NCBI GenBank assembly: GCA_950059285.1
Contig: CATLTV010000022.1
Span: 1-42,481 of the forward strand
Length of the DNA: 42,481 nucleotides
Source of the DNA: an uncultured Pseudomonadota bacterium
Lineage (GTDB): Bacteria > Myxococcota_A > Bradymonadia > Bradymonadales > Bradymonadaceae
Reading direction: 5' to 3'
Under the pieces are notes generated by a model that saw nothing but the letters and a program-made list of their open reading frames with translations, did no database searches and was not told where the DNA came from. The position numbers and the translations under genes are program-made. Below are positions 3,836 to 25,687 of this stretch, in pieces (the stretch's first letter is position 1; every line of letters begins with the position of its first letter).

Positions 3836-3871
3836 AAAAAGCAGGCAAGAGACAACTCGTCTCTTGCCTGC
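3834..3871. terminator. Bidirectional Rho-independent terminator between ppk2 (+) and msrB (-)
   Basis: Perfect 13-bp stem gcaggcaagagac / gtctcttgcctgc with loop aactc. Run of 7 A on the + side gives a U-tract for the minus-strand msrB transcript. Confidence 0.8.
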
Positions 3872-6362: not shown

Positions 6363-6427
6363 CCCTTTACTTTCACTTCTCTTTCTCACTTGAGACACAC
6401 ACCGGATTACTTATAAGGAGGTAACCC

Positions 6428-8824: not shown

Positions 8825-8842
8825 ACCCTCCAGAATAAGGGA

Positions 8843-8895
8843 TAGCGAGGCCATATATCTCGCAGATAAACAACCTCGCTATCCCTTATTTATCA
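8843..8895 (+). terminator. Putative intrinsic terminator after the flotillin gene
   Basis: 14-bp inverted repeat aagggatagcgagg ... cctcgctatccctt with a loop of about 19 nt, followed by atttatc. Confidence 0.55.
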
Positions 8896-8952
8896 AAGCT
8901 TTAATTCATGGCCACCCCCTCCCCTTATGATGGCCTGAACAGTTACTATATC

Positions 8953-8969
8953 TTCAAGACACAACGTCT
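8953..8969 (+). promoter_or_regulatory. Shared upstream motif copy 2 (TTCAAGACACAACGTCT), about 20 nt upstream of the giant ATPase gene start
   Basis: Same 14-mer as at 5261-5274. Followed by SD AGGAG and ATG 8990. Confidence 0.5.
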
Positions 8970-8989
8970 GTCTCAGGAGCGTATCGACG

Positions 8990-11900
8990 ATGAGCACCGA
9001 CCCAAGCATCGACACAGAGTCCACCACAGAAGGCCAGGACGCCTCTCTGGAAACAAGCAACTATGAGGTCATCCGCAAGCGCCTTGTGGAGCAAGGACGC
9101 GCGCTCGCCAAAAAGGCGGACACACTGAATGCCCGACGCCAGGAATTCTTCGGCTCCACGGTCATGGATGTCATCGACAACCAGACCATCACCACCGAAA
9201 ATAACTGCATCCCTCAGGATATCATCAACCTCGGCGATCAGCTCCTGTTTGGCTACAACGTTCACCGCAAAATGAGCCAGACTCAGGTCTCCGATGTCTT
9301 CAGCCTCCATAACTTCTCCAAGCAAGGCGACGAGATCATCCTTCAACACGTCGCGCAGGACACCTCCAGCAACTTCCTTGGTCAGGAGAGCTTCATCGAA
9401 GCGTTCAATCAGCTCTATTTCTCCTTTAAAGACGCATTCTTACGCCAGCTCCGCCGCGTCGACGGTCGACTGCTCGCTATCTTTCAGACCGGCTCATCTC
9501 TAAGAGATATTCGTGTCTTTCGTTGGGCTGTCGACGTCAATAACAACGTCGAATACATCGATAACGCAGGCCAAAAAGATAACACCTACATCCCCTCTCA
9601 TGACTTTGAGTGGAACCCCACCAAACGTGAAGACCACATCACGGGTAAACACCCCCACATCTCCATTAAAAACAAGGTCTTTGTGGAGACCGTGGGCGGT
9701 GACCTCACCATTAAACTTGAGGACAACACCTCCGATGGGGAAGGCATCTACTCCGAACCTGTCGAGGACAAAAACCAGGCGCTCGGCGATGCCAGCATCT
9801 TCTGGGCCGAGGTCGGTAACCTTATCCTCCTCAAAATCAAACCCTACCGTGAGGAGAACTGGCGTTACTTCGTGTTCAACACCCTCACGCGCACCGTCGC
9901 ACGTGTCGACAGCATCGGACTCTCCTGCGTCGCACTCCCTGAAGACCATGGCATTATCTTCCCTGGCGGCTATGTCCTTGAGAGCGGTGAGGTCAAGACC
10001 TTTGACAATGACACTGCCAAGATGCGCATCGAACATGTGCAAAAGTCTCCCAATGGTGAAGATGTCCTCTACTCCTTCTATCGCCCTGATGATGGGCTCT
10101 ACTTCCTGCTCTCCTACAACCTGATTCGCAAGGAAGTTCAAAATCCCATCCAGTGCCACGGCTACTCCATCTTTGATGATGGCACCATGATCGTCTTCCG
10201 TGCCACGGATGACCAACAAACTCGCCATCACCCCATGCGTATGTGGAGCACGCCCTACGTCAGTGATGCCTTCGCCGCCGCCGCTCCCACCGATGGCTCG
10301 TTCCTCTCAAAAATCGGTAACGCCGACCTCGTACGCGGTATATCTGATGCATATAGCGTGCGAAAAACAATTAACAATCAGTCACCTACAGTGGAGCTTT
10401 ATGCCTCCATCATCTCTGCTGCCGAGCGCATGCTTGACCAGTATTACTGGTATGGTGACAACGAAGTCGAGGACATGTCCTCGACGCTACGCGAGGTCAT
10501 CAAGACCTGCCAGCTCGTCATCGATGAGTTTGAAAAAGTGCGCGCCATGCAACAGCAGGCTCGCAAGGCGCTCAAGGAAGCAGAAGATGAACAAAAGCGC
10601 CTCTTTGGTGATATTCGCTACGGTAACTGGCGCGAAATTAGCCGCTTTGTCGATGCCCTCGATGGCCTGCGTGGTCAACGTGGCCGCCTGATTACGCTAC
10701 GCGAAATCAAGTACATGGACATCAAGCGTGTTGATGCGCTTGAGCAGGATGTCATCGCTCAGTACGACAAGCTCAGCCAGGCGACGGTGAGCTTCCTCCT
10801 CGGCGAGGATGCGCTGACGTCGTATCGCGACGAGATCAAGAATGTCATTGATACGGTGGAGGAGATCAGCAGCACCGTCGAAGCCAATGAAATCAAGGAA
10901 GAAATCGATCGCATCGGTGAGGGTCTTAACCTCTTGACCGAGGTCATCAGCAGCCTCAAAATCGAAGATCCCAACGCACGTACTCAAATCCTTGAGAGCA
11001 TCGCCGAAGTCCTTGGACAACAGAACCGCTCCCGCGCCATGCTTGAAGCCCGTCAACGCGCGCTCCTTGAGTCCGAAGGCAAGGCCGAATTTGCCGTGCA
11101 GTTCCAACTCCTTGGCCAGTCTGTGACCAGCGCACTCGGCATGAGTGAATCTCCCGAACGCTGCGATGAACAGCTTGAGCGCATGATGGTTCAACTCCAG
11201 GAAATGGAGAGCCGCTTTAGCGAATTTGATATCTTCCTCGCCAAACTCACTGAAAAGCGCGAAGAGATCTACGAAATCTTTGAAGGTCGCAAACAACAGC
11301 TCGTCGAGGAGCGCCAACGCAAGGCCAGCACGCTCGCCACTGCCGCCGAAAAGATCCTCTCGGGTATCACACGACGCGCCCAGAAAATGGACGATGTCGA
11401 GAAGCTTAACGCCTACTTTGCTGCCGATGCCATGGTCCTCAAAGTCCGCGAAATCGCGGATCAGTTGCGTGACCTCAAGGAACCTGTCAAGGCCGATGAC
11501 CTCCAGAACCAGCTCAAGGCCACACGCGATCAGGCTATTCGTACCTTGCGTGATAAGCTCGACCTGTTTGAGGACGGCGACGCCATCATCAAACTTGGCA
11601 AGCATCGCTTTAGCATCAACACACAACCTCTGGAACTCACCATGGTTCCTCGTGATGAAGAGGTCCGCCTCCACATCACAGGCACCGACTTCTATGAGCC
11701 TGTTGAGGATCAAGACTTCCTCGCCACTCGCTATCTCTGGTCACAGCAAATCCCCAGTGAAAACAAGGATGTATACCGTTGTGAATATCTCGCAATGAGC
11801 ATCCTCAACGATGCACGTGCGAAGCGTAAGGAGCACACGCTCAGCAGCCTCCACGAGGTCGCGGTCAATAACAATGAGCTGCTCAAAGTCGTACGCAGTT

Positions 11901-14689
11901 ACATCGAAGATCGCTACGATGAGGGGTATGAACGCGGTGTCCATGACACTGACACCACGCTCATTCTCACTGGCTTGATTAACCTCTATTACACCGCTGG
12001 ACTGCTACGATTCAGAGGTCTTGCGCGCGCACTTGCCACGCTCTACTGGGCCTATCCTCCGCTTGAAAATGAGATCGATGAGCGTCAGGCACGCACACTC
12101 TCACTGGCAGCGCAACAATCCGCCAAGGAGTCCCCTGCACAACGCCGCCGTAAACTCCTTGTACGACGCGCCAGAAGCCTTGGTCGCTTGCGTAAAACCT
12201 TTGAGCAAAGCGAGGCCGCACAGAACCTCATTGAGGAGATCATCGAGGAACTCACAACCTTCTGCCAGGACTATGAACTCACCGATACATTTGCGCCGTT
12301 CATGATCAGAGACTCCGCAGAATACTTGCTCGAAGAGCTTTCAAGCAGTGGTGAGCCCAAGTTTGTACTGGGTGCACAGGCAGAAAACCTCGTCACCAAG
12401 TTCCACGACTTCCTCGACTCCACGGGGAACCGCAAGGACTTTGAAGAGGATCTCCAGACGCTTGAGCGTGAGCTTGAAGCAAGCTGGGAGCTGACCTCGG
12501 GATGGATGGAAGCCTACATCTCTCAACGTCGCGAGGACGAAGTTCCCGTGGCTCATCTCAAAGACGAGGCGATCGGCTACATTCTCACAAAAGGACGCGT
12601 GGATCATGAAGTCTCAAGCGCCCGAATTGAAACCACAATCAAGAGTCTTCTTGGCCAACATCCACGCATTCAAAACCAGGAGCTCACCATCAAACTCGAT
12701 GAGTTCCTGAGCCGTGTTAACCAGTTCATCCATGAGCGTGTCCCTGCGTATCGTGCCTATAGAAAGCTCTCGCACGAGGTCCTTGATCGCTCGCGTAAGC
12801 GCCTCAAGCTCGATGCGCTCAAACCCAAGGTCCTGAGCACCTTCGTACGTAACAAACTCATTGACGAAGTCTACCTCCCACTCATTGGCGACAACCTCGC
12901 CAAACAAATGGGTAGCGCTGGCGATTCAGGCCGCAGTGACCGCCAAGGTTTGCTGCTTCTGATCTCCCCTCCTGGTTATGGTAAGACCACGCTCATGGAG
13001 TACGTCGCAAGCCGACTTGGGCTCACGTTCATGAAGATCAACGGCCCCGCACTTGGGCACAATGTCATCTCGATTGACCCCGCCGAGGCCCCCAACGCCA
13101 CTGCGCGACAGGAAGTTGAGAAGATCAACCTCGCCTTGCAAATGGGTAACAACGTCATGCTCTATCTCGATGATATTCAGCACTGTAACCCCGAGCTGTT
13201 GCAGAAGTTCATCTCATTGTGTGATGCCACACGTCGTATTGAAGGCGTCTGGCAAGGCGACACCAAGACCTATGACCTGCGTGGCAAACGCTTCAGCGTG
13301 GTCATGGCTGGTAACCCCTACACCGAGACAGGTGAGCGCTTCCAGATTCCAGACATGCTCGCGAACCGTGCGGACACCTACAACCTGGGTGATATCCTCG
13401 AAGGTTCTCAGGAAGCGTTTGCGCTCTCCTACATTGAGAACGCCCTGACCGCAAACCCTGTGCTCGCGCCGCTAGCAAACCGTGAAAAGGATGACATCTA
13501 CCTGTTCATTCGCATGGCACAGGGCGAGGATATTCCACTGACAGATTTAAAATATAGCTACTCTGCGGTTGAGGCCAATGAGATCGTTAACGTGCTCAAG
13601 AAGTTGTTTGTATGCCAGGACGTCTTGCTCAAGGTGAACCAGGCCTACATCGAATCTGCATCGCAAGACGACGCCTACCGCACAGAGCCCCCATTCAAGC
13701 TCCAGGGTTCCTACCGTAACATGACCAAACTTGCGGAGAAGGTTGTCAGCGCGATGAACGATGAAGAACTCAACGCTCTGATCGATGACCACTACCTTGG
13801 CGAATCGCAGACACTCACCACACAGGCAGAACAAAACCTTTTGAAATTAAAGGAGATCCGCGATAAAATCACCCCCAAAGAACTGGAGCGACTCGACTCG
13901 ATTCGCGCCGAATTCAGACGCCGTAAAATGATGGGTGGCAGCGGTGATAATGATCCTGTGAGCCGCGTCTCTGGTCCATTGAGCTCTCTGGTACAAAGCA
14001 TTGAGGAGTTACGTGGCACAGTGCAAAACCAAAATGGTCTGAACACACCTCTGATTGAGATTCGCGACGCCATCTCGGGTGCCATGGAAAAACTGCACAC
14101 AGAAGGAATTCACACGCGACAGGAACAACAGAACCAGTCTGCGGGTTTAAATGCCGAAGCACTTCAACATATGGTCGAGGCCATGACCCAGATCGCGAAT
14201 ACACAAAAAGCGCCGCAGGCGGCGCCTGTGTCTGCGCCCGAGGTCAATATCCACTCGGATAACTCGCATCTTGAAACACTGCTCCAGAAGCAAACACTCA
14301 TGTTTGAGACGATCTTTGGCCAGCTCGCCAAGCTCGCGGACTCTCAAATTGAGACAAGTCGACAGAGCGCCCAGGCATTGAAGTCTCTTGAGGAGGTGCT
14401 CGCACAAGGCACACCTCTACGTATGCCTCCGATGTCTGCAATCTCTGGTGTCAGTACAACTGCTGCACCTGCCGCCACACAAGCCCAGGCACAACCACAG
14501 GGTTTTGCGGCAGCAGAGCGTCCTCTTACAGGGGTCAAAAAGCGGGTCCCATTCAAGGAAGTACAGAAACAACGCGAACGTGATGAACAGAGTCAGACCA
14601 CAGCACAGGAAAGCAGCCTCCCCGAGGAGGGTGAAGCCCCTCCGACTCAGAAGCTTCCTGCGGTTAAACTAGAACCCCCATTTGAGTGA
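8990..14689 (+). CDS. Giant (1899 aa) uncharacterized protein. It has a beta-rich N-terminal region, long coiled-coil/helical middle, an AAA+ ATPase domain of AAA_5/MoxR-like type, and a Q/A/P-rich low-complexity C-terminal tail.
   Basis: Single uninterrupted ORF with SD. Walker A LLLISPPGYGKTTLMEY (nt about 12950-12995). Walker B VMLYLDDIQHC (about 13153-13185). Sensor-1 VVMAGNPYTE and Arg-finger region IPDMLANRADTYNL. The DD (not DE) Walker B suggests a modified or slow hydrolysis site. No match to a known named family recognised by eye. Confidence 0.85.
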   Translation: MSTDPSIDTESTTEGQDASLETSNYEVIRKRLVEQGRALAKKADTLNARRQEFFGSTVMDVIDNQTITTENNCIPQDIINLGDQLLFGYNVHRKMSQTQVSDVFSLHNFSKQGDEIILQHVAQDTSSNFLGQESFIEAFNQLYFSFKDAFLRQLRRVDGRLLAIFQTGSSLRDIRVFRWAVDVNNNVEYIDNAGQKDNTYIPSHDFEWNPTKREDHITGKHPHISIKNKVFVETVGGDLTIKLEDNTSDGEGIYSEPVEDKNQALGDASIFWAEVGNLILLKIKPYREENWRYFVFNTLTRTVARVDSIGLSCVALPEDHGIIFPGGYVLESGEVKTFDNDTAKMRIEHVQKSPNGEDVLYSFYRPDDGLYFLLSYNLIRKEVQNPIQCHGYSIFDDGTMIVFRATDDQQTRHHPMRMWSTPYVSDAFAAAAPTDGSFLSKIGNADLVRGISDAYSVRKTINNQSPTVELYASIISAAERMLDQYYWYGDNEVEDMSSTLREVIKTCQLVIDEFEKVRAMQQQARKALKEAEDEQKRLFGDIRYGNWREISRFVDALDGLRGQRGRLITLREIKYMDIKRVDALEQDVIAQYDKLSQATVSFLLGEDALTSYRDEIKNVIDTVEEISSTVEANEIKEEIDRIGEGLNLLTEVISSLKIEDPNARTQILESIAEVLGQQNRSRAMLEARQRALLESEGKAEFAVQFQLLGQSVTSALGMSESPERCDEQLERMMVQLQEMESRFSEFDIFLAKLTEKREEIYEIFEGRKQQLVEERQRKASTLATAAEKILSGITRRAQKMDDVEKLNAYFAADAMVLKVREIADQLRDLKEPVKADDLQNQLKATRDQAIRTLRDKLDLFEDGDAIIKLGKHRFSINTQPLELTMVPRDEEVRLHITGTDFYEPVEDQDFLATRYLWSQQIPSENKDVYRCEYLAMSILNDARAKRKEHTLSSLHEVAVNNNELLKVVRSYIEDRYDEGYERGVHDTDTTLILTGLINLYYTAGLLRFRGLARALATLYWAYPPLENEIDERQARTLSLAAQQSAKESPAQRRRKLLVRRARSLGRLRKTFEQSEAAQNLIEEIIEELTTFCQDYELTDTFAPFMIRDSAEYLLEELSSSGEPKFVLGAQAENLVTKFHDFLDSTGNRKDFEEDLQTLERELEASWELTSGWMEAYISQRREDEVPVAHLKDEAIGYILTKGRVDHEVSSARIETTIKSLLGQHPRIQNQELTIKLDEFLSRVNQFIHERVPAYRAYRKLSHEVLDRSRKRLKLDALKPKVLSTFVRNKLIDEVYLPLIGDNLAKQMGSAGDSGRSDRQGLLLLISPPGYGKTTLMEYVASRLGLTFMKINGPALGHNVISIDPAEAPNATARQEVEKINLALQMGNNVMLYLDDIQHCNPELLQKFISLCDATRRIEGVWQGDTKTYDLRGKRFSVVMAGNPYTETGERFQIPDMLANRADTYNLGDILEGSQEAFALSYIENALTANPVLAPLANREKDDIYLFIRMAQGEDIPLTDLKYSYSAVEANEIVNVLKKLFVCQDVLLKVNQAYIESASQDDAYRTEPPFKLQGSYRNMTKLAEKVVSAMNDEELNALIDDHYLGESQTLTTQAEQNLLKLKEIRDKITPKELERLDSIRAEFRRRKMMGGSGDNDPVSRVSGPLSSLVQSIEELRGTVQNQNGLNTPLIEIRDAISGAMEKLHTEGIHTRQEQQNQSAGLNAEALQHMVEAMTQIANTQKAPQAAPVSAPEVNIHSDNSHLETLLQKQTLMFETIFGQLAKLADSQIETSRQSAQALKSLEEVLAQGTPLRMPPMSAISGVSTTAAPAATQAQAQPQGFAAAERPLTGVKKRVPFKEVQKQRERDEQSQTTAQESSLPEEGEAPPTQKLPAVKLEPPFE
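12940..13480 (+). other. AAA+ (AAA_5/MoxR-like) ATPase domain inside the giant protein
   Basis: Walker A, Walker B, sensor 1 and arginine-finger motifs in canonical order and spacing. Confidence 0.7.
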
Positions 14690-15414
14690 TCATGATGGAC
14701 TATCCGCTGGCAAAACAGGAGAAGACCTATCTCAAGGCGCTGCGCAGATTCCAACAACACCCGATGACCCCTGAAGCTGCGCAGATTCTGGCGAACCAGT
14801 CCTCGCTGATGTGGCCCTTTCGCCTGACGGTATTGCTTGGGACCATCCATTTTCTGTGTGTCATCATCAATCCTGCCGCGTTCTCGTTCTCTTACGTGAT
14901 CACGACCACAGTCATCACCAGCGCTGTGATCGTGATCACGCTGATTAAACTCATTATCGTCAAGAGACGCCTCCTCCACACGACTCAGATTGTCTGGGAA
15001 CGCACACCAGACGAAGCGCTGGACATCCTCGTAAAACATCAGCAGTACCAGCACTTACGCCACAGCAGGCTTCAAAAATCTTACAAGATTTACAAGTATG
15101 CGATCCCATCCATGACCATCTTCGCAGGGCTAAGCATCCTGTGCTTGGTCCTACAATTTATGCCAGTTTTTTCAGCATTTAACATTGGTGGCCAGGCCGT
15201 CTTCGCACTGCTTGCATCATTTATCCTGTTCAACATTGCCTGCGTGCTCGCAATGTCCACACGCGGCAAATTACGCGATCAAGACATCGTACAAAAAAGC
15301 CTGAGATCCTCCATGCCCGAGTTGTTCACCACCGAAGCACTTCAGGGTGCTGTCAGCCTTGATGAAAGGGTACAACAAGGGCAAATCAGCATCTCTGAGC
15401 GCCATGAATCGTGA
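14686..15414 (+). CDS. 4-TM membrane protein, paralog A, translationally coupled to the giant gene
   Basis: GTG 14686 overlaps the stop of the upstream gene (GTGA); ATGs at 14692/14695. N-terminal K-x3-HPMTP motif, two hydrophobic hairpins separated by the basic loop IVWERTPDEAL. Confidence 0.7.
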   Translation: MIMMDYPLAKQEKTYLKALRRFQQHPMTPEAAQILANQSSLMWPFRLTVLLGTIHFLCVIINPAAFSFSYVITTTVITSAVIVITLIKLIIVKRRLLHTTQIVWERTPDEALDILVKHQQYQHLRHSRLQKSYKIYKYAIPSMTIFAGLSILCLVLQFMPVFSAFNIGGQAVFALLASFILFNIACVLAMSTRGKLRDQDIVQKSLRSSMPELFTTEALQGAVSLDERVQQGQISISERHES

Positions 15415-15450
15415 CACTTCGCGCGAACACAACGCAGGTAACGCATATCA

Positions 15451-16173
15451 ATGACCCAACAGCTTGATACACAAAACAATACCATGGTGCTCGCTGATGC
15501 ATTGAAAGAATATGACAAACATCCCATGCATCCTGACATTGCGAGGGATCATTACACATCAAAGAAGAGCCTCGTGACGTGGTTGATCTTCACGCTCTTC
15601 CTTGAGATTTATGCCATTGTCTTGTTCATGATGCTCTCTCCAGCAAACCCCCTTCTCTTCCTTACAACCACTGCGATCATCGTACTGATTCTATTGCTCT
15701 TGCCCCTCCTTGGAAGGCTCCGAAACAAGAAGAAGCTCAAAAAAATCTTGTTGGTCTGGGATAAAGCCCCTGACTACGCTCGTCAAAAGCTCATTTCCCA
15801 CTACAGCACCCCTCCAGAACACTTGCTCACCAAGGCAGGAAAATACCAAAACCTCGCGATTGGTAGTTTTATCATGACTCCCTTGAGCATCGTCATCTAC
15901 TCCAACTTACCGTACATAAGCACTGCACCAGAGCTGTTGATCTTGTTTTTTGTCATTATCCCGCTGTCTTGCATCGCAACCTCCGTGGTGCTCATGATAC
16001 AGTCCAAGCGCTTGAAAAAGAGGAACCTCATGTTGCACGGCGACTTTCATCGTATCAACGCTATCATGCCTGCGCTTATCTCATCCAACGATCTCAAAGG
16101 TGGCCTCAGCCCTGATCATGTGCACGCTCAAGGAAACCTGAGCATGGCCGACACAGAACCACAGGAACACTAA
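15451..16173 (+). CDS. 4-TM membrane protein, paralog B, tandem duplicate of 14686-15414
   Basis: Same architecture and conserved motifs as paralog A (KEYDKHPMHPD; LVWDKAPDYAR vs IVWERTPDEAL). Confidence 0.7.
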   Translation: MTQQLDTQNNTMVLADALKEYDKHPMHPDIARDHYTSKKSLVTWLIFTLFLEIYAIVLFMMLSPANPLLFLTTTAIIVLILLLLPLLGRLRNKKKLKKILLVWDKAPDYARQKLISHYSTPPEHLLTKAGKYQNLAIGSFIMTPLSIVIYSNLPYISTAPELLILFFVIIPLSCIATSVVLMIQSKRLKKRNLMLHGDFHRINAIMPALISSNDLKGGLSPDHVHAQGNLSMADTEPQEH

Positions 16174-16181
16174 AATAAACA

Positions 16182-17303
16182 ATGTTTTCAAACAGATACA
16201 AACACAAAACCCATAGTATTCTTCTTTGTTTTATGCTCCTTACTGTGCCCTCCATCGCATCGGCACAGCAGAGCACAATCACACACACCATTGAAGAGGC
16301 GATGACGTCTGGCGATCACGCAGGGCTCAAGGAGCTGTCATCGCGAGGCGCAAAAATCAAGGAACTCCTGAGCATGGAACACCTCCCCAAAGGAGGTGTG
16401 GCCGCAGAGTTGCTCGTGGAGTTTAAAGGAAAATTACTACGTTACCCTGTCAAACTCATGCGTACAGCAACACATGAGCGCTGTGATAAGGATGTGATGG
16501 GTTGGCAAGTCACGCAGGCCCCTGACAAGGCGTTCACATCTGCGCTGCTCAATGTCTTGACCTCGGGCCAGCTTCCTCAAACCACCGCAGATCTTCCCGC
16601 CTGGACCAAAGAAACTCGCCTGCCTGCGTTGCCTGTCGTGGTGACTCAGAGCAGCATCTTTACACCCTACGGCAAGATTGCATGGAGTGTACTTGAGCAA
16701 GAGATTGACCCAGCCTCCCCCATGGCCGAGGTCGCGCCTCCACAAGAGCTTGTCAAACACAGCCAACGTTGGGTCAATGACTTCCTTGAAGAGGAACCTG
16801 GCGCTGCTGCTGTAGATCTTGTCCTGGACCGACGCATAAGCTGGCAGCTACTCAACCGAACCATCTTTGGTGTCTCGTCGGTGGGCTTGTACAGGCTCAA
16901 CCTGATCACAGAGACCAGCGATGGGTTCAACACACTGGCGGCTTCCGCGCCTGTCTTTGGGAGCTTACCTGGAGTCGAGAAACCCGTACCACTTGTACTT
17001 GGTTATTATCCTGTCGGTGAGAATCATGGCTGGCGAGTATCACAAGGTAAGGCTGTACTCCACGAGGATGATAGCTGTGATGCGGAGATGAGCTTTTGTA
17101 CAACCTCGGAGCAAGCTTTTATCGAAAAGTTTGGTGCTCTGTCCAAACGTATGCGCGCCAAAAAGCCAACAAATCCAAGCTTTGCGACCTTTGCCACCAC
17201 AAAAGATGTCACCGTGGAACAGGCCGTCGTGTTCTGGCAACACGCAGCCGTAGCTCTTGGAATTCTTGAGCGTCGCATTTTTCTTAGCTACATCAAACGA
17301 TAA
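16182..17303 (+). CDS. Secreted hypothetical protein (signal peptide, AxA cleavage site)
   Basis: N-terminal signal peptide ILLCFMLLTVPSIASA-QQ. No recognisable domain. 8 nt after the previous gene. Confidence 0.7.
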   Translation: MFSNRYKHKTHSILLCFMLLTVPSIASAQQSTITHTIEEAMTSGDHAGLKELSSRGAKIKELLSMEHLPKGGVAAELLVEFKGKLLRYPVKLMRTATHERCDKDVMGWQVTQAPDKAFTSALLNVLTSGQLPQTTADLPAWTKETRLPALPVVVTQSSIFTPYGKIAWSVLEQEIDPASPMAEVAPPQELVKHSQRWVNDFLEEEPGAAAVDLVLDRRISWQLLNRTIFGVSSVGLYRLNLITETSDGFNTLAASAPVFGSLPGVEKPVPLVLGYYPVGENHGWRVSQGKAVLHEDDSCDAEMSFCTTSEQAFIEKFGALSKRMRAKKPTNPSFATFATTKDVTVEQAVVFWQHAAVALGILERRIFLSYIKR

Positions 17304-17752
17304 TGAAGTCCATGAACAACCTCGCAAAACACGCAATAAAAAATCTTTTACTTCAATCAATTGCAGCACTCACATTGATTGGTTGCAAGACCACAACGAC
17401 CGCTCCTGACACACAGGATGACGCCTCCGAAGCAGTCAATCAATGCACTCAAGAGCGCGCCACCGATCCACTCCTGAGCATCGAGATCTGGGCCTCAAGC
17501 TCACCTGATGCACAGGATTTAAGCGAGGATGCGCGACAACTTAGATCCTCCTGGGGCGATGCTTCGTTAGAGGTTGTACGTGCATGGAAAAACGAAGATG
17601 GGAGCTGGTCTGCGCTCCTCTCGAACTCGCCAGAACCTGACACAAATGACAAGGTTATTCTTCTTGTAATTCAAAAAGATAGCCAGGGCATATGGTCGCA
17701 AGCCATGCCTGCTCAGGTCACAGATGCCGATACCTTGTGGCCTCAACTTTAA
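17303..17752 (+). CDS. Small lipoprotein (149 aa)
   Basis: TAATG stop/start overlap with the upstream gene. Lipobox LTLIGC. Confidence 0.65.
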   Translation: MKSMNNLAKHAIKNLLLQSIAALTLIGCKTTTTAPDTQDDASEAVNQCTQERATDPLLSIEIWASSSPDAQDLSEDARQLRSSWGDASLEVVRAWKNEDGSWSALLSNSPEPDTNDKVILLVIQKDSQGIWSQAMPAQVTDADTLWPQL

Positions 17753-17772
17753 AACACAGCCGAGATAGGATA

Positions 17773-18759
17773 ATGACTCTTCAATTGCGCATGAATTATG
17801 GGGCAACAGCATTATGTACACTGATCACAATGAGCCTGTTTGGTGCCTGTAAAAACAGCACCCCAAGTCCGACCCCACAGGTCGAGCAACCTCAGGAAAA
17901 TACAACTGAAGCACAAGGCTCCACGTCAGCTCCAAAAACAGAGCAACCTGCTGTAGCCGAGCTAACATCAGAACAAAAACAAAAGATATTCAAAGCACTT
18001 GGATGTCCCGAAGAAGCCATCACAGAGACAGGTTGCAAACAGTGTCCTTCTGCTGTGGAGTACTGGACCACTGCACCTCGCTCGGAGGATGCGCCTGAAG
18101 TAACCATCCAACTTGAGCAGGGTGTTTTCAGCTCTACACATACTGGCCGAGAACAGGTCCTGGCAAGCTTTGGAGATTGTCAGGAGCTTCCCGCTGGACA
18201 GTATTATTTTCAAGAGCTTGCACATTTGACAGAGCAAGAAGATGGGAGCTGGACACTTCATGCGAGCGTGAGCGTTGCAGATCCGCAAAAGTGTGAACAA
18301 ATCAAGGTCTCTGACACACTAACCCACACACTTTGCACAACATATCGTGGGCGCATGGGGTCTTACGAAATGGCAATGGAAGCCTATTCGTGGGACAAAA
18401 CAACCTCTTCTGGTGCGGAATCCTATCCCACGACCACGACGATACTCACAGCCATGGAGTATGACAGTTGTGGCTCAAACCTTGTGATTGGAAATGATAT
18501 CAAGCGTAAGTTTGAGGATGTTGATGGCGACGGCTTAAACGATCTCTCCTTTACCATCACACATATTGAAGGTCCATGGACTGGAGATCAGTCCGAGTGT
18601 ATGGATGGTGATTACGAAGGCGAAGAACTTACGCCCAAACGAGATAAGAAAACCACTTCTCACACCTACACTTATATTGCCATCCCCGAAGGGTACAAGG
18701 AGCAGAACGGAAAGACTGCGTTCATCCCACACTCTGCGGAATTCGATGGCTTCTTCTAA
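17773..18759 (+). CDS. Lipoprotein with a GCPxE..GCxxCP motif and a DxDGDG calcium-binding-like loop, paralog 1. ORF track extends to 17692; the ATG at 17773 is preferred.
   Basis: Signal plus lipobox SLFGAC. ALGCPEEAITETGCKQCPS. C-terminal FEDVDGDGLNDLSF...ECMDGDYEGEEL. Paralogous to 19100-20107. Confidence 0.65.
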   Translation: MTLQLRMNYGATALCTLITMSLFGACKNSTPSPTPQVEQPQENTTEAQGSTSAPKTEQPAVAELTSEQKQKIFKALGCPEEAITETGCKQCPSAVEYWTTAPRSEDAPEVTIQLEQGVFSSTHTGREQVLASFGDCQELPAGQYYFQELAHLTEQEDGSWTLHASVSVADPQKCEQIKVSDTLTHTLCTTYRGRMGSYEMAMEAYSWDKTTSSGAESYPTTTTILTAMEYDSCGSNLVIGNDIKRKFEDVDGDGLNDLSFTITHIEGPWTGDQSECMDGDYEGEELTPKRDKKTTSHTYTYIAIPEGYKEQNGKTAFIPHSAEFDGFF

Positions 18760-18950
18760 GAGCGTAATAAAGAAAGAGTTGTTGGGAAAAGCTCGTAGAA
18801 AGCGCGTATTTTGGTGTCGCAAAAACAGAATGTAACACGGCTACTATTCTTGGTTTTTACTCCTTAAACTCCACGCTTTCTCCTTCGCTTTTCTTCCAAC
18901 AACTCCTTCTCCATCACGCTCTAGCTCAGCCATTGCATGGCCACTACATT

Positions 18951-19025
18951 AAAAGGTCAACCCAAAGTGCTCGTCTTGAAGACGAGCACTTTGGGTTGAC
19001 CTTTTAATGTAGTGGTCAAAATTCT
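18951..19025. repeat. 75-bp perfect palindrome (37-bp arms around one central base) between the two paralogous lipoprotein genes
   Basis: ccactacattaaaaggtcaacccaaagtgctcgtctt-g-aagacgagcactttgggttgaccttttaatgtagtgg. Both arms perfectly complementary. No flanking T-tract on either strand. Confidence 0.9.
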
Positions 19026-19099
19026 AATACAGCACATATTACATCGCCTTTAAAAAAGGCCATACGTTATCAACATACAGTTACAAGTGAGAGCTCCAA

Positions 19100-20107
19100 A
19101 TGAATAAAAAACCTTTCTATCTTATGGCATTAGCGCTGTGTTTTTCCGCATGTAAAACCACCGAAACACATACAATCGCCCCCGAGACCACGGAGAAAGT
19201 AGGCACGCTCACGCCCGATGAAGGCACACCCAAGGAGCAGGAAGAGAAGATCGAGCAAAAGGAAGCACGCGCACCAAAGATCATCGACGAGCCTACTTTG
19301 CCAGAGGAGCTTCATGAAGGGTTGCTATTGGCGATGGGTTGTCCCAAGGAGCTGATTCGTCCTGAAGGATGTCAGATCTGTCCTACTCAGAATGAAGCAC
19401 AACCCATGGCAAGACCGCTGCGCTCTGGTCCTGTGACAGAGGTCCGCTTTACCCGTGGACATTACACAAACCAGGATCGTCTACAAGTTGTTGCGCAGAT
19501 GGGACCATGCCTTGCAAAGGATGGCACAGAAGATATGCATCAGATCGTACTCTTGCAACGTGAGGACAACAGCACATGGACACGCCTTGCCAGTACCGCA
19601 CTACAGGGCGTGCAGTCCTGTGATACGTTGCCTGTAGTGGGTAAAGCAGCCCGCTCTATCTGTCATACAAAGAACAACAATAACGGTCTCCTCGTTGGCG
19701 GTTATTACGGCCTCTCATGGGATGTCCCGGTGAAAACCGAGAATGCAACCTTGCCACAGCCAACCACCACAAAGTTGGTGGACACTGTGGAAGGCTATGG
19801 GTGCGCCGAAAACTGGTCTGTCACACAGGAGGTCAAATATAGCACCAAGGATCAAAATCTTGATGGTATCAATGAGTTGACGCTGGATGTGAACACCACA
19901 GAGGGCATGTACATTGGACCTCTTGATGAGTGCATGTTTGGGGAGTTTGAAAAACCTCTGGAGCCCATCAGAAAGGAACAGATAATCTCGGTACAGTACA
20001 AATACAAGATCGACGCCAATGGCTTTACTGAAAAAGAAGACACTTCTACTAAGCCTGCACTGTCAGACGAATTTAGCAGGCTTATTAAAGAGCGATTGGC
20101 GAAGTAA
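19100..20107 (+). CDS. Lipoprotein, paralog 2 of 17773-18759
   Basis: Lipobox LCFSAC. AMGCPKELIRPEGCQICPT aligned with the paralog. C-terminal DQNLDGINELTL...ECMFGEFEKPL. Confidence 0.65.
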   Translation: MNKKPFYLMALALCFSACKTTETHTIAPETTEKVGTLTPDEGTPKEQEEKIEQKEARAPKIIDEPTLPEELHEGLLLAMGCPKELIRPEGCQICPTQNEAQPMARPLRSGPVTEVRFTRGHYTNQDRLQVVAQMGPCLAKDGTEDMHQIVLLQREDNSTWTRLASTALQGVQSCDTLPVVGKAARSICHTKNNNNGLLVGGYYGLSWDVPVKTENATLPQPTTTKLVDTVEGYGCAENWSVTQEVKYSTKDQNLDGINELTLDVNTTEGMYIGPLDECMFGEFEKPLEPIRKEQIISVQYKYKIDANGFTEKEDTSTKPALSDEFSRLIKERLAK

Positions 20108-20136
20108 TCACCCAATAGAATTCAACATCTTACAGG

Positions 20137-22809
20137 TCACAACCTCTTTGCTCGCAAGAGCAAGGAGTTTGTGACCACGCTGACGCTTGAGAGCGCCATC
20201 GCCCCCGCAGCCAGAGCCGGGACAAGGAGTCCAAGCGCGGCAACAGGTACAAGGATAACGTTGTATCCAAAGGCCCAGAAGAGGTTCTGTCGGATCTTGC
20301 CATAGGTTGCTCTGGCGAGCAGCACGGCCTGGACAACTTGCTCGAGGTTGTGCCCCACGAGAGTCATGGCGGCGGCCTCCATGGCCACATCTGCACCGCT
20401 CCCCATGGCGATGCCAAGATCGGCCTGGGCGAGCGCAGGGGCATCATTGATACCATCACCAACCATGGCCACGACCTTGTCTTGAGCCTGAATATCACGC
20501 ACAATCTGAGCCTTATCACCTGGCAAGACCTGGCTTTTGACGTGGGATGCCTTGATCCCAAGTTCGGCGGCGACGGAGTGCGCGACCTGAGCATCATCAC
20601 CTGTCACCATCCAGACCTCCACGCCCTGAGATTCCAGTGATCGAATCGCCTCTTTCGCCTCATCTCGAGGTGTGTCCATGACCGCAATGACACCAAGAAT
20701 GGTGGATGAATCTGCAAGAAGGACGACGGTCTTGGCTTGCTCTCTGAGTGATTGCACCGTGGATGTATGTTGAGGATCAATGTCAGGATAAAGAGGAAGT
20801 ATCCAGGAGGGTTTTCCAAGACGGTAACGTTCTCCCTGAATAGATGCCTCCACACCATGACCTGCTATCACCTTGAAATCTTTCAAAGATTCATCATCAC
20901 GCCCAACACCATCCTCATCAGCCCTGTTGAGAATTGCAGCTGCGATGGGGTGCTCACTGCCCTGCTCCAGCAAGGCAGCTAACCTGAGGATATCGTGTGT
21001 ATCCTGCGCTGTCTGAGACGTCTTCACATCAAGAGGGGTGATATCTGTGACATGCATTTTACCATGCGTGAGCGTACCTGTTTTATCAAAGATCAGGGCA
21101 TCAAGCCGACTGGCCTGTTCAAGGGCGTTGGCCTCACGAATGAGGATGCCCTGCTTTGCACCACGTGAGGAGCCCACCATCAATGCAGTGGGCGTGGCAA
21201 GTCCGAGTGCGCAGGGACAGGCCACCACGAGCACCGCGATCGCGGGTGCGATGGCTGTAGCCAGGGGCTCCTGAAGGATGAAGAACCACACCACAAACGT
21301 CAGCACAGCGATGGCGATGATTGTGGGGACGAAGATCGCCGAGATTCTATCTGCGAGGCGTTGAATATTTGCTTTGCTCTCCTGAGCAAGTTCAACCTGT
21401 TTGATGATACGAGACAACGCCGTATCACCTGCAGCGCGAATAACTTCGGCCTCAAGAAACCCATCGGTGTTGATGGTAGCCGCCATGATCTCGTCGCCTT
21501 CCGAGCGTGTGACAGGCACTGATTCACCCGTAAGCATTGCCTCATTCATATCGGCGCTACCCTTTTGAATAACAGCATCCACGGGGACTTTCTCACCTGG
21601 TTTGACCGCGATCGTATCGCCCACATTGACCTGATTCACGGGGAGAGTCACCCACTGCCCCTGTTGTAATACAGTCGCGGATTGAGCGCCCAGCGAGAGG
21701 AGCGCCTCCATGGAGGCGCTGGCCGAGCCTCGAGCCTTGACCTCAAGCCATTTTCCAAGACTAATCAGGGTTACGATCATGGCAGCACCATCAAAGTACA
21801 CATGTCCAGAGTGTTCATGACCAAAAGTGGAGAGGATCGTGACCACAAGGGAGTACGTGAAGGCCACGCCAGCCCCAAGAGCCACGAGAGTATCCATGTT
21901 GGCGCTGCCATGCTTCAGACCTTGCCATGCTCCCTGAAAGAAGGGTTTTCCTGTAACCCACAGCGTGAGGGCGGTGAGGTACGCGACAGTGAACAGCGTC
22001 AGCGCAAGCGTGGTGCCATGGAGATGTACACCAAACCACATTGGCCCCATCTGCAAGAGGAGAATAGGTGGCAAAATGGCGAGCCCGAACAGAAAGCGTC
22101 GAAGCCAGGAAGATGCCTTTTTCTGGAGCCTTGATGTGACGGTGGAGGTTGAAGATGCAGAGCTTTCTGCACCATCTGATGTATGTAAGGCATGTTGCTG
22201 GCTTTGATGCGCAGGAGCGTTCGGGTCATCGATGCGCCACGACTCAACCTCATAACCTGATGATTCAACTGCATTTTTCAACTCTTCAGCAAATGCATCC
22301 TCGTCGACAACATCATCAGAAGGAATCACCGTGGCACGTTCGGTGGCATAGTTGACCACGGCAGATTGTGCATTGGGAAGGTCTGCAAGGGCACGCTCCA
22401 CACGAGCGACACAGGAGGCGCAGGTCATGCCACGCACCTCGAGTACAATGCGAGATGATTTACCTGTAGCGATTGCAGTGGGCGTACTATCAGCAGGAGG
22501 TTCCACACTGTGAGTTACGGTTACATCCTCATCTACAGGAGCGGGTGTATTGGAAGTGTGTTCAGCATTGTGAACCCCCTCAACAATGGAGATCACATCA
22601 AAGCCAGCGTCCTCCACTGCTTCGGAGAGCATGAACTTTGTATCGTCATCAAGAGGTGACTGTAGCTGCACGATCGCTTGGTGGTCATCGAGTGAGACCT
22701 GGACATCATGTGTATGCTCAAGATCGTTGAGCATATCATGAACACGTGAGGTGCAATGAGAGCAGGTCATGCCCTCAATACGAATGGATACGGGGTAATA
22801 ATGTTCCAT
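20137..22809 (-). CDS. copA: Copper-translocating P1B-type ATPase with two N-terminal HMA domains
   Basis: GMTCSHCTSRV and GMTCASCVARV metal-binding motifs, CPC transmembrane motif (VVACPCALGLATP), DKTGTLT phosphorylation site, GDGINDAPAL hinge. 890 aa. Confidence 0.93.
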   Translation of the reverse strand: MEHYYPVSIRIEGMTCSHCTSRVHDMLNDLEHTHDVQVSLDDHQAIVQLQSPLDDDTKFMLSEAVEDAGFDVISIVEGVHNAEHTSNTPAPVDEDVTVTHSVEPPADSTPTAIATGKSSRIVLEVRGMTCASCVARVERALADLPNAQSAVVNYATERATVIPSDDVVDEDAFAEELKNAVESSGYEVESWRIDDPNAPAHQSQQHALHTSDGAESSASSTSTVTSRLQKKASSWLRRFLFGLAILPPILLLQMGPMWFGVHLHGTTLALTLFTVAYLTALTLWVTGKPFFQGAWQGLKHGSANMDTLVALGAGVAFTYSLVVTILSTFGHEHSGHVYFDGAAMIVTLISLGKWLEVKARGSASASMEALLSLGAQSATVLQQGQWVTLPVNQVNVGDTIAVKPGEKVPVDAVIQKGSADMNEAMLTGESVPVTRSEGDEIMAATINTDGFLEAEVIRAAGDTALSRIIKQVELAQESKANIQRLADRISAIFVPTIIAIAVLTFVVWFFILQEPLATAIAPAIAVLVVACPCALGLATPTALMVGSSRGAKQGILIREANALEQASRLDALIFDKTGTLTHGKMHVTDITPLDVKTSQTAQDTHDILRLAALLEQGSEHPIAAAILNRADEDGVGRDDESLKDFKVIAGHGVEASIQGERYRLGKPSWILPLYPDIDPQHTSTVQSLREQAKTVVLLADSSTILGVIAVMDTPRDEAKEAIRSLESQGVEVWMVTGDDAQVAHSVAAELGIKASHVKSQVLPGDKAQIVRDIQAQDKVVAMVGDGINDAPALAQADLGIAMGSGADVAMEAAAMTLVGHNLEQVVQAVLLARATYGKIRQNLFWAFGYNVILVPVAALGLLVPALAAGAMALSSVSVVTNSLLLRAKRL

Positions 22810-24689: not shown

Positions 24690-25478
24690 TTATTCATTTT
24701 CGCCGATAACCCCTTCCACATAATTTTTACGTGCATCGACATTCATGCCACGAAGCTTACGACACATGGCACCAATTTTCTGAGCATCAATTTCATCGAG
24801 GGAAGTTGCGCCCATACGTTTGACGTAGAGGTCCTGGAATGCCTTTTTCTCTTCAGCAGAGACAGCTTCTTCGAGCAAGGCGAGGAACTCGGCGCTGCGT
24901 TCTTGCCAGCGTTCCTTGGGGGAAGGCTGTTTTGAGCTTGGCGCAGCCTGCGTCTCAGGAGCAGGTTTGGAGCTTGACTGTGAGCTGCGAGGCTGACGAG
25001 GAGCGGGAGCTTCTTCATATTCGGGGTCATCACCCGTGGAGATGAGGAAGGTCTTCATGAGGAAGTATTTAATCGCGCCTGTGTAAGCCTTGTAGTAGCC
25101 CTTATCACCGTTATCCATGCCTTGACCAACCCATGTGGTGGTCATCATATCGCCAGATTCACCATCGACGAGTGTAATATCCAGCGTGACCGTGGTGAGG
25201 TAGGAGGTCTTGCGACCTTCGTCGGTTTCTTCCACGGAGTGTGCGGCAACGCTGGGGAAGATGGCCACGCCTTGCTCAGCCAACTTGTCACGAATATGAT
25301 CCACAAGGTCAGCTTCATACACGTAATCGTATTTATGGAAGCTATTTCGACCGTTCTTGGGGATGCGGTGCACATCTGCGAGGACCTGAGCGAGCTTACG
25401 CGCCAGAGGACGACCTTGCACAGGGTAAGTTTGAGCAGGAGGAACGGGGAAGTGAGTGACGTTTGGGTTGGTAGCCAT
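24690..25478 (-). CDS. erf: ERF-family single-strand annealing protein (phage-type recombinase), orphan. ORF track extends to 25541; the ATG for MATNPN at 25478 is preferred.
   Basis: IPKNGRNSFHKYDYVYEADLVDHIRDKLAEQGVAIF matches the ERF superfamily core (KNGKNsF-KYkYasLedi). Ser/Pro/Gln-rich linker and acidic C-terminus. No other phage genes nearby. Confidence 0.7.
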   Translation of the reverse strand: MATNPNVTHFPVPPAQTYPVQGRPLARKLAQVLADVHRIPKNGRNSFHKYDYVYEADLVDHIRDKLAEQGVAIFPSVAAHSVEETDEGRKTSYLTTVTLDITLVDGESGDMMTTTWVGQGMDNGDKGYYKAYTGAIKYFLMKTFLISTGDDPEYEEAPAPRQPRSSQSSSKPAPETQAAPSSKQPSPKERWQERSAEFLALLEEAVSAEEKKAFQDLYVKRMGATSLDEIDAQKIGAMCRKLRGMNVDARKNYVEGVIGENE

Positions 25479-25687
25479 GGTGTGCTCCTTGTATCGAAAA
25501 GAGAAGGTGTGTCGTGCCTTTAGTGTGTATATGCTCCACATGACATGGAGCGAACAAGCGTCATGTTGCGCTTGATTGAGGGGGTCATCATCTCGCCCCT
25601 TACATACTTAAGAATACCCACCCCACAGCGTAAAACAATGTCTTAACCGCTGCGAATACGATCAAAAACCATTCAACGCAAAAAATA

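Follow-up and report, generated by a model that had tools for sequence, protein, structure and literature searches.

A 75-bp perfect palindrome at an operon end in a Bradymonadaceae genome, best filed as a probable variant of the bidirectional-type intrinsic terminator

In bacteria, perfect palindromes with 30-40-nt arms are regarded as unstable. One with arms of 37 nt lies between two lipoprotein genes of an uncultured bacterium assigned to the Bradymonadaceae, and we asked what such a structure may do at this place and how it could have become so long and so perfect. All coordinates below refer to the window, by which we mean the whole stretch of 42,481 nt that was analysed (contig CATLTV010000022.1 of NCBI assembly GCA_950059285.1).

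The palindrome and its variation among strains

An earlier note, made from the letters of the window, had described a perfect 75-bp palindrome, its two 37-nt arms separated by one central G. This description is correct, except that the note placed it at 18951-19025; the true site begins 10 bases further to the left (Table 1). Its unusual length was borne out as well, with about 2e-17 such palindromes expected at random in 42 kb, and the lipoprotein genes on its two sides are true paralogs, as had been proposed (27% identity, E value 4e-30). The inner 23 bp (GGTCAACCCAAAGTGCTCGTCTT, 52% G+C) are preceded by AAAA and followed by TTTT, and beyond these runs another 10-13 bases are paired (CCACTACATT / AATGTAGTGG). 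When the 340-nt intergenic region was folded, it formed two hairpins, the first of them a 164-bp repeat resembling a miniature inverted-repeat transposable element (MITE) and the second the palindrome. As plus-strand RNA, the full structure with 40-nt arms (18938-19018) folds at -70.1 kcal/mol with 39 consecutive pairs, and the core alone folds at -45.4 kcal/mol on either strand.

Table 1. Positions of the palindrome, the neighbouring MITE-like repeat and the adjacent genes in the window
Feature	Coordinates	Strand	Remarks
Upstream lipoprotein paralog, 328 aa	17773..18759	+	Last operon gene before the hairpins; recombinant relative to the three-paralog strain
MITE-like repeat, 164 bp, long imperfect hairpin, AGAGCGTAATAAAGAA...CCATCACGCTCT	18759..18922	+	Inverted-repeat arms 18759-18790 / 18891-18922
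Spacer, 15 nt, from right end of the MITE-like repeat to the palindrome	18923..18937	.	Equals the spacer from stop codon to hairpin before insertion
Palindrome with extended 40-nt arms	18938..19018	.	One G:T mismatch (18940/19016); perfect over 40 nt in L002
75-bp perfect palindrome	18941..19015	.	Arms 18941-18977 and 18979-19015, centre G18978
Terminator-like core of the palindrome	18951..19005	.	AAAA 18951-18954, 23-bp stem 18955-18977 / 18979-19001, TTTT 19002-19005
Downstream lipoprotein paralog, 335 aa	19100..20107	+
Convergent heavy-metal P-type ATPase gene	20137..22809	-	29-nt spacer to the paralog, without a hairpin

To see how the palindrome varies, we compared the strains in which it is fully assembled, namely the window, L002 and L003, which are 97-98% identical throughout. 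Since these strains have diverged by only 2-3%, conservation alone is no sign of selection. The palindrome is identical in L001, an independent ENA assembly. L002 (NCBI GCA_041242055.1), about 98% identical overall, has A for G at 18940, which gives 40 perfect pairs. In L003, another ENA assembly, the arms are 27 nt long; the stem carries one C-to-T change (plus strand) that leaves a G:U pair, the central G is a C, and the left outer flank reads ACAACATCACTACC in place of CCACTACATT, with outer arms that pair imperfectly. The core of A4, 23-bp stem and T4 is therefore what all three strains have in common, with the one G:U-compatible change in L003. The outer arms, perfect in some strains and imperfect in L003, may have been either perfected or degraded, as the direction of the change needs an outgroup. 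The operon is also present at more distant orthologous loci (L008, L009 and L011), at about 50% amino-acid identity, but the 16-21 kb available for each showed no comparable hairpin, and the corresponding intergenic region of L008 folds no better than shuffled sequence. There is thus no deep conservation of the hairpin, and these relatives cannot serve to polarise the changes.

A further strain, L038 (GCA_041241415.1, 96.8% identical), is represented by a contig that begins 6 nt to the left of the palindrome centre. Here the apex pair T-A is replaced by C-G on both arms, and the right arm has three more differences, the partners of which lie outside the assembled sequence. These four differences in 40 nt, against a background of 3.2%, indicate that the palindrome changed faster than its flanks in this strain. 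The contig of L039 begins 11 nt to the left of the centre, and assemblers evidently break at the palindrome. Such ends recur in short-read assemblies, at the palindrome centre or within the MITE (L038 position 1, L039 position 1 and L041 position 4016). In practice, palindromes of this kind and the 164-bp MITE break short-read assemblies exactly at their centres.

A terminator-like core and long palindromes at other gene ends

The reading that we favour, with moderate confidence, is that the palindrome is the Rho-independent-type terminator and 3'-end hairpin of the upstream operon and that its outer arms were perfected by template switching. On its sequence features, it would best be filed as a variant of the bidirectional-type intrinsic terminator, out of the ordinary only in the length and perfection of its stem and situated beside a newly recognised MITE. 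We infer that transcripts end at the palindrome, that it may terminate transcription in two directions and that template switching was the perfecting mechanism.

Several observations point to this reading. The earlier note had held that no U-tract adjoins the palindrome on either strand and that it is not a canonical intrinsic terminator. The claim about the U-tract fails because the tract sits within the arms of the palindrome, where TTTT directly follows the core stem and AAAA mirrors it; the palindrome as a whole (75-81 nt) is indeed not canonical, but it should not be rejected as a terminator for want of a U-tract. The G+C-richer stem of the core (18955-19001) is followed by TTTTAATGT, which holds only four consecutive T, and while the full palindrome, with its 1-nt spacer, exceeds the canonical size, the 47-nt core would fit. 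The working unit would accordingly be the inner A-tract, the 23-bp stem and the T-tract. The position is also suitable: the palindrome lies 15 nt past a MITE that abuts the stop codon of the last operon gene, and without the MITE it would begin about 18 nt past that stop codon, the normal place for a terminator. We suggest that the MITE inserted later, at the TA of the stop codon, and so moved the hairpin 164 nt downstream. Five other hairpins of the window (at 3839, 8834, 23715, 24620 and 25684) have the same build of A-tract, stem and T-tract, with perfect arms of 14-22 nt, and lie 10-40 nt after stop codons, which suggests that this organism uses hairpin terminators of the symmetric type.

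Because the core unit is symmetric, it could also stop read-through on the minus strand from the convergent ATPase gene. A consensus scan flagged the core as terminator-like on both strands, with TTTTAAT after the 23-bp stem and ATTAAAA as its mirror. Minus-strand transcription could reach the palindrome only by reading through from the ATPase gene antisense to the downstream paralog; with no hairpin in the 29-nt spacer between these two genes, the palindrome is the first strong hairpin that such transcription would meet. The two genes, separated by 20108-20136, would be transcribed into mutual antisense unless transcription is otherwise stopped.

Compared with known terminators, the palindrome resembles the bidirectional intrinsic type in its G+C-richer stem with mirrored A and T runs, in its place near a stop codon once the MITE is discounted, in being flagged on both strands and in having related palindromes between convergent genes. 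It differs in its dimensions. Terminators in well-studied bacteria have stems of 20-35 nt over both arms and a median loop of 4 nt, and TransTermHP accepts stems of at least 4 bp, loops of 3-13 nt and stem-loops of at most 59 nt, with typical stems of 10-17 bp (PMC12207403). Here, the core has a 23-bp stem and the full structure one of 37-40 bp, the loop is effectively 1-3 nt, the total length is 81 nt, and pairing runs 10-13 bp past a T-tract of only 4 nt. Standard terminator predictors with a stem-loop limit of 59 nt would miss such palindromes.

These dimensions, beyond the canonical limits, also speak against a terminator, as does the T-tract, which is short and is base-paired to the A-tract within the full hairpin. 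Likewise, the hairpin has no equivalent in the more distant relatives that share this operon. Finally, we found no convincing sigma-70 promoter between the palindrome and the co-directional downstream gene, so a strong terminator would silence the paralog unless there is read-through or an unrecognised promoter.

We surveyed about 150 kb of JGI metagenome contigs that bear the MITE, cataloguing their palindromes by a repeat search whose distance setting was opaque in its effect. Where the two can be compared (L031 against the post-MITE part of L040), these contigs match an NCBI strain of the species at about 95% identity, and L040 comes from the same NCBI assembly as the lipoprotein locus; the JGI contigs come from the same or a very close species. 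The survey yielded 14 palindromes with arms of 30-40 nt and at least 94% complementarity, 8 of them perfect, and about 13 more with arms of 20-29 nt. Their sequences are all different, and their spacers range from 0 to 7 nt. Palindromes with 30-40-nt arms occur about once per 10 kb. All 10 whose context was checked lie at gene 3' ends, 5 of these between convergent genes, and several touch or overlap stop codons, in some cases those of both convergent genes. With those in the window counted in, the set comprises 28 palindromes. In 21 of them, a G+C-richer inner stem is followed by a T-rich tract, and about 12 of the 28 pair for at least 7 nt beyond the T-tract, as ours does. The remaining seven or so have no clear T-tract, a further point against the terminator reading. 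Contigs in which we noted many unique palindromes of this kind, with 30-40-nt arms, 0-5-nt spacers and locations at gene 3' ends, are L013, L014, L016, L017, L020, L024, L029, L032 and L034.

We consider the abundance of long gene-end palindromes across the lineage to be the part of these results that deserves follow-up; the palindrome of the window alone changes little. It is conceivable, though in our judgment doubtful, that this lineage marks most of its gene or operon ends with unique, nearly loop-less palindromes of 50-80 bp, about one per 5-10 kb, which are kept perfect by copying between the arms. If so, the palindrome studied here would be one instance of an unusual genome-wide system at 3' ends. 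Such a system would be either a separate way of terminating or processing transcripts, in effect a bacterial "hairpin rule," or an unusually active mutational process that perfects palindromes and is tolerated by the cell. With long palindromes recurring at gene ends and with arm and loop changes between strains that are 2-5% diverged, the lineage offers a natural setting in which one could measure how hairpins are built and maintained by template switching and explore the limits to the length of a terminator stem.

Possible signs of copying between the arms, and two other readings

Termination would leave the outer 10-13 paired bases and the near absence of a loop as dispensable features. We suggest that both came from arm-to-arm copying at the DNA level, that is, from template switching at hairpins during replication (quasipalindrome correction), and that this process appears to act on many gene-end hairpins of the lineage. 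An RNA hairpin needs no self-complementary loop. Nonetheless, in 16 of the 28 palindromes the gap is no wider than 2 nt, whereas a requirement for nothing more than an RNA loop of 3-4 nt would predict about 25% (p about 3e-4). Loops also appear inverted between strains: in one palindrome (L031 1405-1461 against L040 4161-4213), the 3-nt loop is GCA in one and TGC in the other, which are reverse complements, and the central base of our palindrome is G in the window and C in L003. In the stem of the MITE, two positions are perfectly paired in the window and in L003 with different bases, and L002 carries the mismatched combination of the two. Judging from these patterns, a single templated event would explain the changes in paired arms and the loop inversions better than several point mutations.

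Template switching at hairpins is a proposed source of perfect stems, compensatory changes and loop inversions (PMC8794818), and for proteobacteria a preference for correcting imperfect inverted repeats has been deduced (PMC5941160). Given the perfect stems, compensatory changes and loop inversions seen here, we read the outer arms and the missing loop as the product of a DNA-level process acting on a terminator seed. The likeness to quasipalindrome correction (Ripley/Lovett; PMC8794818, PMC5941160, PMC7202029) lies in an arm that is imperfect in one strain and perfect in others, in joint changes on two arms, in reverse-complemented loops and in a "mismatched" intermediate haplotype in a third strain. 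The difference lies in scale: every perfect inverted repeat in E. coli K-12 had arms shorter than 20 bp (PMC5941160), whereas arms of 30-40 nt are common here, where the mechanism is suggested by patterns of variation.

The same evidence could be read as showing a feature of the DNA without any transcript function of its own, either an originally small hairpin that grew neutrally by template switching until no free intergenic space was left or a cruciform or protein-binding site. Several of the features described so far agree with this: the outer 10-13 bp have no role in termination, palindromes of the class abut, and in some cases overlap, the stop codons of both neighbours, loop-less symmetry is in excess with loops inverted between strains, and the palindrome changed faster than its flanks in L038. 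However, the strict location at gene 3' ends and the layout of A-tract, G+C core and T-tract point to a functional seed, the unique sequence of each palindrome speaks against a shared protein-binding site, and no candidate gene for a binding protein or nuclease was found nearby. A DNA-level by-product is possible for the outer arms, though it leaves the gene-end location and the inner layout unexplained; as an account of the whole palindrome, we think it rather unlikely.

Alternatively, the palindrome may act in the RNA, as an element of processing or stability that is cut as a duplex by RNase III or that blocks 3' exonucleases. The hairpin would then define where the operon mRNA ends, in the manner of a "hairpin rule" for 3'-end formation, or it would let the upstream message and that of the downstream paralog decay independently of each other. 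RNase III needs roughly two helical turns of duplex. The perfect duplex at -70 kcal/mol is far longer than the 20 bp or so of uninterrupted double-stranded RNA that this implies. Several class palindromes without T-tracts still lie at gene 3' ends, and a co-directional downstream gene without an evident promoter would favour read-through combined with processing. Yet most members of the class carry the A-tract and T-tract signature of intrinsic terminators, and L003, in which the outer arms are imperfect, retains exactly the terminator core; in addition, a role in RNA leaves the loop symmetry and the loop inversions unexplained. We therefore consider it unlikely that processing is the primary role, although a role in 3'-end formation or stability is compatible with termination and the two may coexist.

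Palindromic signals at 3' ends are known from Mimivirus, according to the account in PMC3058096. As far as that account goes, the Mimivirus "hairpin rule" (Byrne et al. 2009, cited in PMC3058096) is alike in that palindromes of unique sequence lie at gene 3' ends genome-wide. It differs in that it concerns polyadenylation in a eukaryotic virus and A+T-rich hairpins; our palindromes are those of a bacterium, have terminator-like cores with A- and T-tracts and are known from sequence alone.

The neighbouring MITE and the lipoprotein genes

The earlier note had also raised the possibility that the palindrome is a remnant of a MITE-like element, and it had remarked on a CT-rich tract at 18841-18950. 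The tract is real, and it is mostly the right arm of the 164-bp repeated element; the MITE-like element is thus this neighbouring hairpin and not the palindrome. Its terminal inverted repeats are 32 nt long and 81% matched, and the element starts on the final base of the TAA codon that closes the upstream lipoprotein gene. It folds with z-scores of -7.0 on the plus strand and -12.7 on the minus strand. Specifically, the minus-strand RNA reaches -92.9 kcal/mol with 7 G-U pairs and the plus-strand RNA -67.4 kcal/mol with 1 G-U pair; the stronger minus-strand fold could reflect a role of a minus-strand RNA or a strand-biased mutation.

The central 28-mer of the element was found on 26 contigs of one JGI metagenome, often at contig ends. 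In this related metagenome population, there are at least 17 left ends, at least 17 right ends and 8 complete copies of 164 nt. In alignment, the copies have sharp ends and unrelated flanks, and most have T and A on their two sides; these T...A flanks fit a TA duplication or, equally, a part of the terminal repeat. The ends often form the stop codon of a long open reading frame or lie within a few bases of it, in either orientation, and the stem co-varies between copies. We class the element as a MITE, a short sequence without coding capacity that has terminal inverted repeats and occurs in many copies, each sharply delimited and set in unrelated sequence. It resembles the MITEs derived from TA-targeting IS630/Tc1-mariner elements in its 164-bp length, lack of coding capacity, terminal inverted repeats and long hairpin, as well as in its dispersed copies with unrelated flanks, its T...A flanks and its insertions at stop codons. 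It differs from them in that no parent transposase was found, and the palindrome lies outside the element. Neither a cognate transposase nor an empty insertion site was found in our searches for them.

Two minor observations concern copies of the MITE elsewhere. A truncated left-end fragment lies just upstream of a gene start in L034 (4264-4297). One NCBI contig (L040 3997-4160) joins the MITE of this locus to the flank of another MITE copy, which is likely a repeat-mediated chimera or a real rearrangement.

The palindrome itself behaves otherwise. The search for further copies that the earlier note had proposed found it to be single-copy in all sequence searched, and it is not a generic dispersed repeat. 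Within the window, no second copy was found by a search allowing 3 mismatches or by blastn and nhmmer, and among 41 fetched loci it occurred at orthologous sites only. A 20-mer scan of the GTDB representative genomes gave only four chance matches, inside response-regulator genes, and the exact apex pattern had no match in the JGI metagenomes and IMG/VR. These collection scans are weak negatives, because they used exact patterns that include the apex, the bases of which differ between strains, as in L038; the conserved 19-mer of the palindrome is CACTTTGGGTTGACCTTTT. No related copies at unrelated loci, as would be expected of a dispersed repeat, MITE or REP element, were thus found in the searched sets. 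Rfam gave nothing at the gathering threshold in the window, and below the threshold there were only generic long-hairpin matches to miRNA precursor models. Nor does the palindrome qualify as a site of site-specific recombination or telomere resolution (attC or protelomerase target): its odd-length centre breaks exact dyad symmetry, and no integrase, resolvase or transposase domain was found in the main open reading frames of the 42-kb window.

A recombination site behind the lipoprotein duplication had been a further suggestion of the earlier note. The array has two paralogs in the window (17773-20107) and three in L003 (8997-12346) and L040 (1997-3996). In alignment, the upstream gene of the window follows paralog 1 in its 5' part and paralog 2 in its 3' part, a fusion that points to unequal recombination within coding sequence. 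In L003, both the MITE and the palindrome are absent from the 56-nt spacer that separates paralogs 1 and 2. As the breakpoints between two and three paralogs lie inside coding sequences and this spacer lacks a palindrome, the palindrome is not the recombination site.

It is accordingly very unlikely that the palindrome derives from or belongs to a mobile element (a MITE, a REP or the end of an IS), or that it is the recombination site of the duplication. The case for such an origin is one of proximity, in that the palindrome is only 15 nt from a genuine MITE, that 5 of 16 MITE copies, including that of the window, have a long palindrome 0-15 nt past their right end, that the outer arms resemble the MITE terminus in L016 and L031, and that the number of paralogs differs between strains. 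But the palindromes beside other MITE copies are unrelated in sequence, and many equally long ones have no MITE nearby. The adjacency can be explained by insertion of the MITE at the TA of stop codons and by palindromes that start right after stop codons. For the same reasons, with MITE ends forming stop codons in both orientations, we had no need to suppose that the MITE targets hairpins.

An assembly artefact, in the form of a fold-back chimera, can be dismissed almost with certainty: two short-read assemblies (L038 and L039) do end exactly at the palindrome centre, and assembly near the MITE is error-prone (L040 and L041), but the same palindrome is found inside contigs of independent assemblies (L001, L002 and L003) and, with unique flanks on both sides, is contig-internal in four independent assemblies from three data sources, which carry strain-specific differences in it.

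The favoured reading, a terminator with outer arms perfected by template switching, concerns a conserved operon region (6428-20107) that encodes a 798-aa protein, a 1899-aa DUF3686/DUF7902/AAA ATPase, two membrane proteins, a 373-aa protein, a 149-aa lipoprotein and the lipoprotein paralogs. PADLOC gave no match on the operon. At its start, two open reading frames of about 800 codons are fully antisense to each other (6407-8854 on the minus strand and 6428-8824 on the plus strand); neither has a Pfam match, and of the two, just the plus-strand frame is consistent with the operon. Among 5.8 billion proteins, the lipoprotein family forms only 2 clusters. A gene at 24690-25541 on the minus strand encodes a stand-alone single-strand-annealing protein of the ERF family and adjoins a TetR regulator; it is probably a host gene and not prophage cargo, being found at the same position in the distant L008, and any link between it and the dynamics of the palindromes is speculation. 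The operon and the convergent heavy-metal ATPase gene are syntenic in L008, L009 and L011, down to about 50% amino-acid identity.
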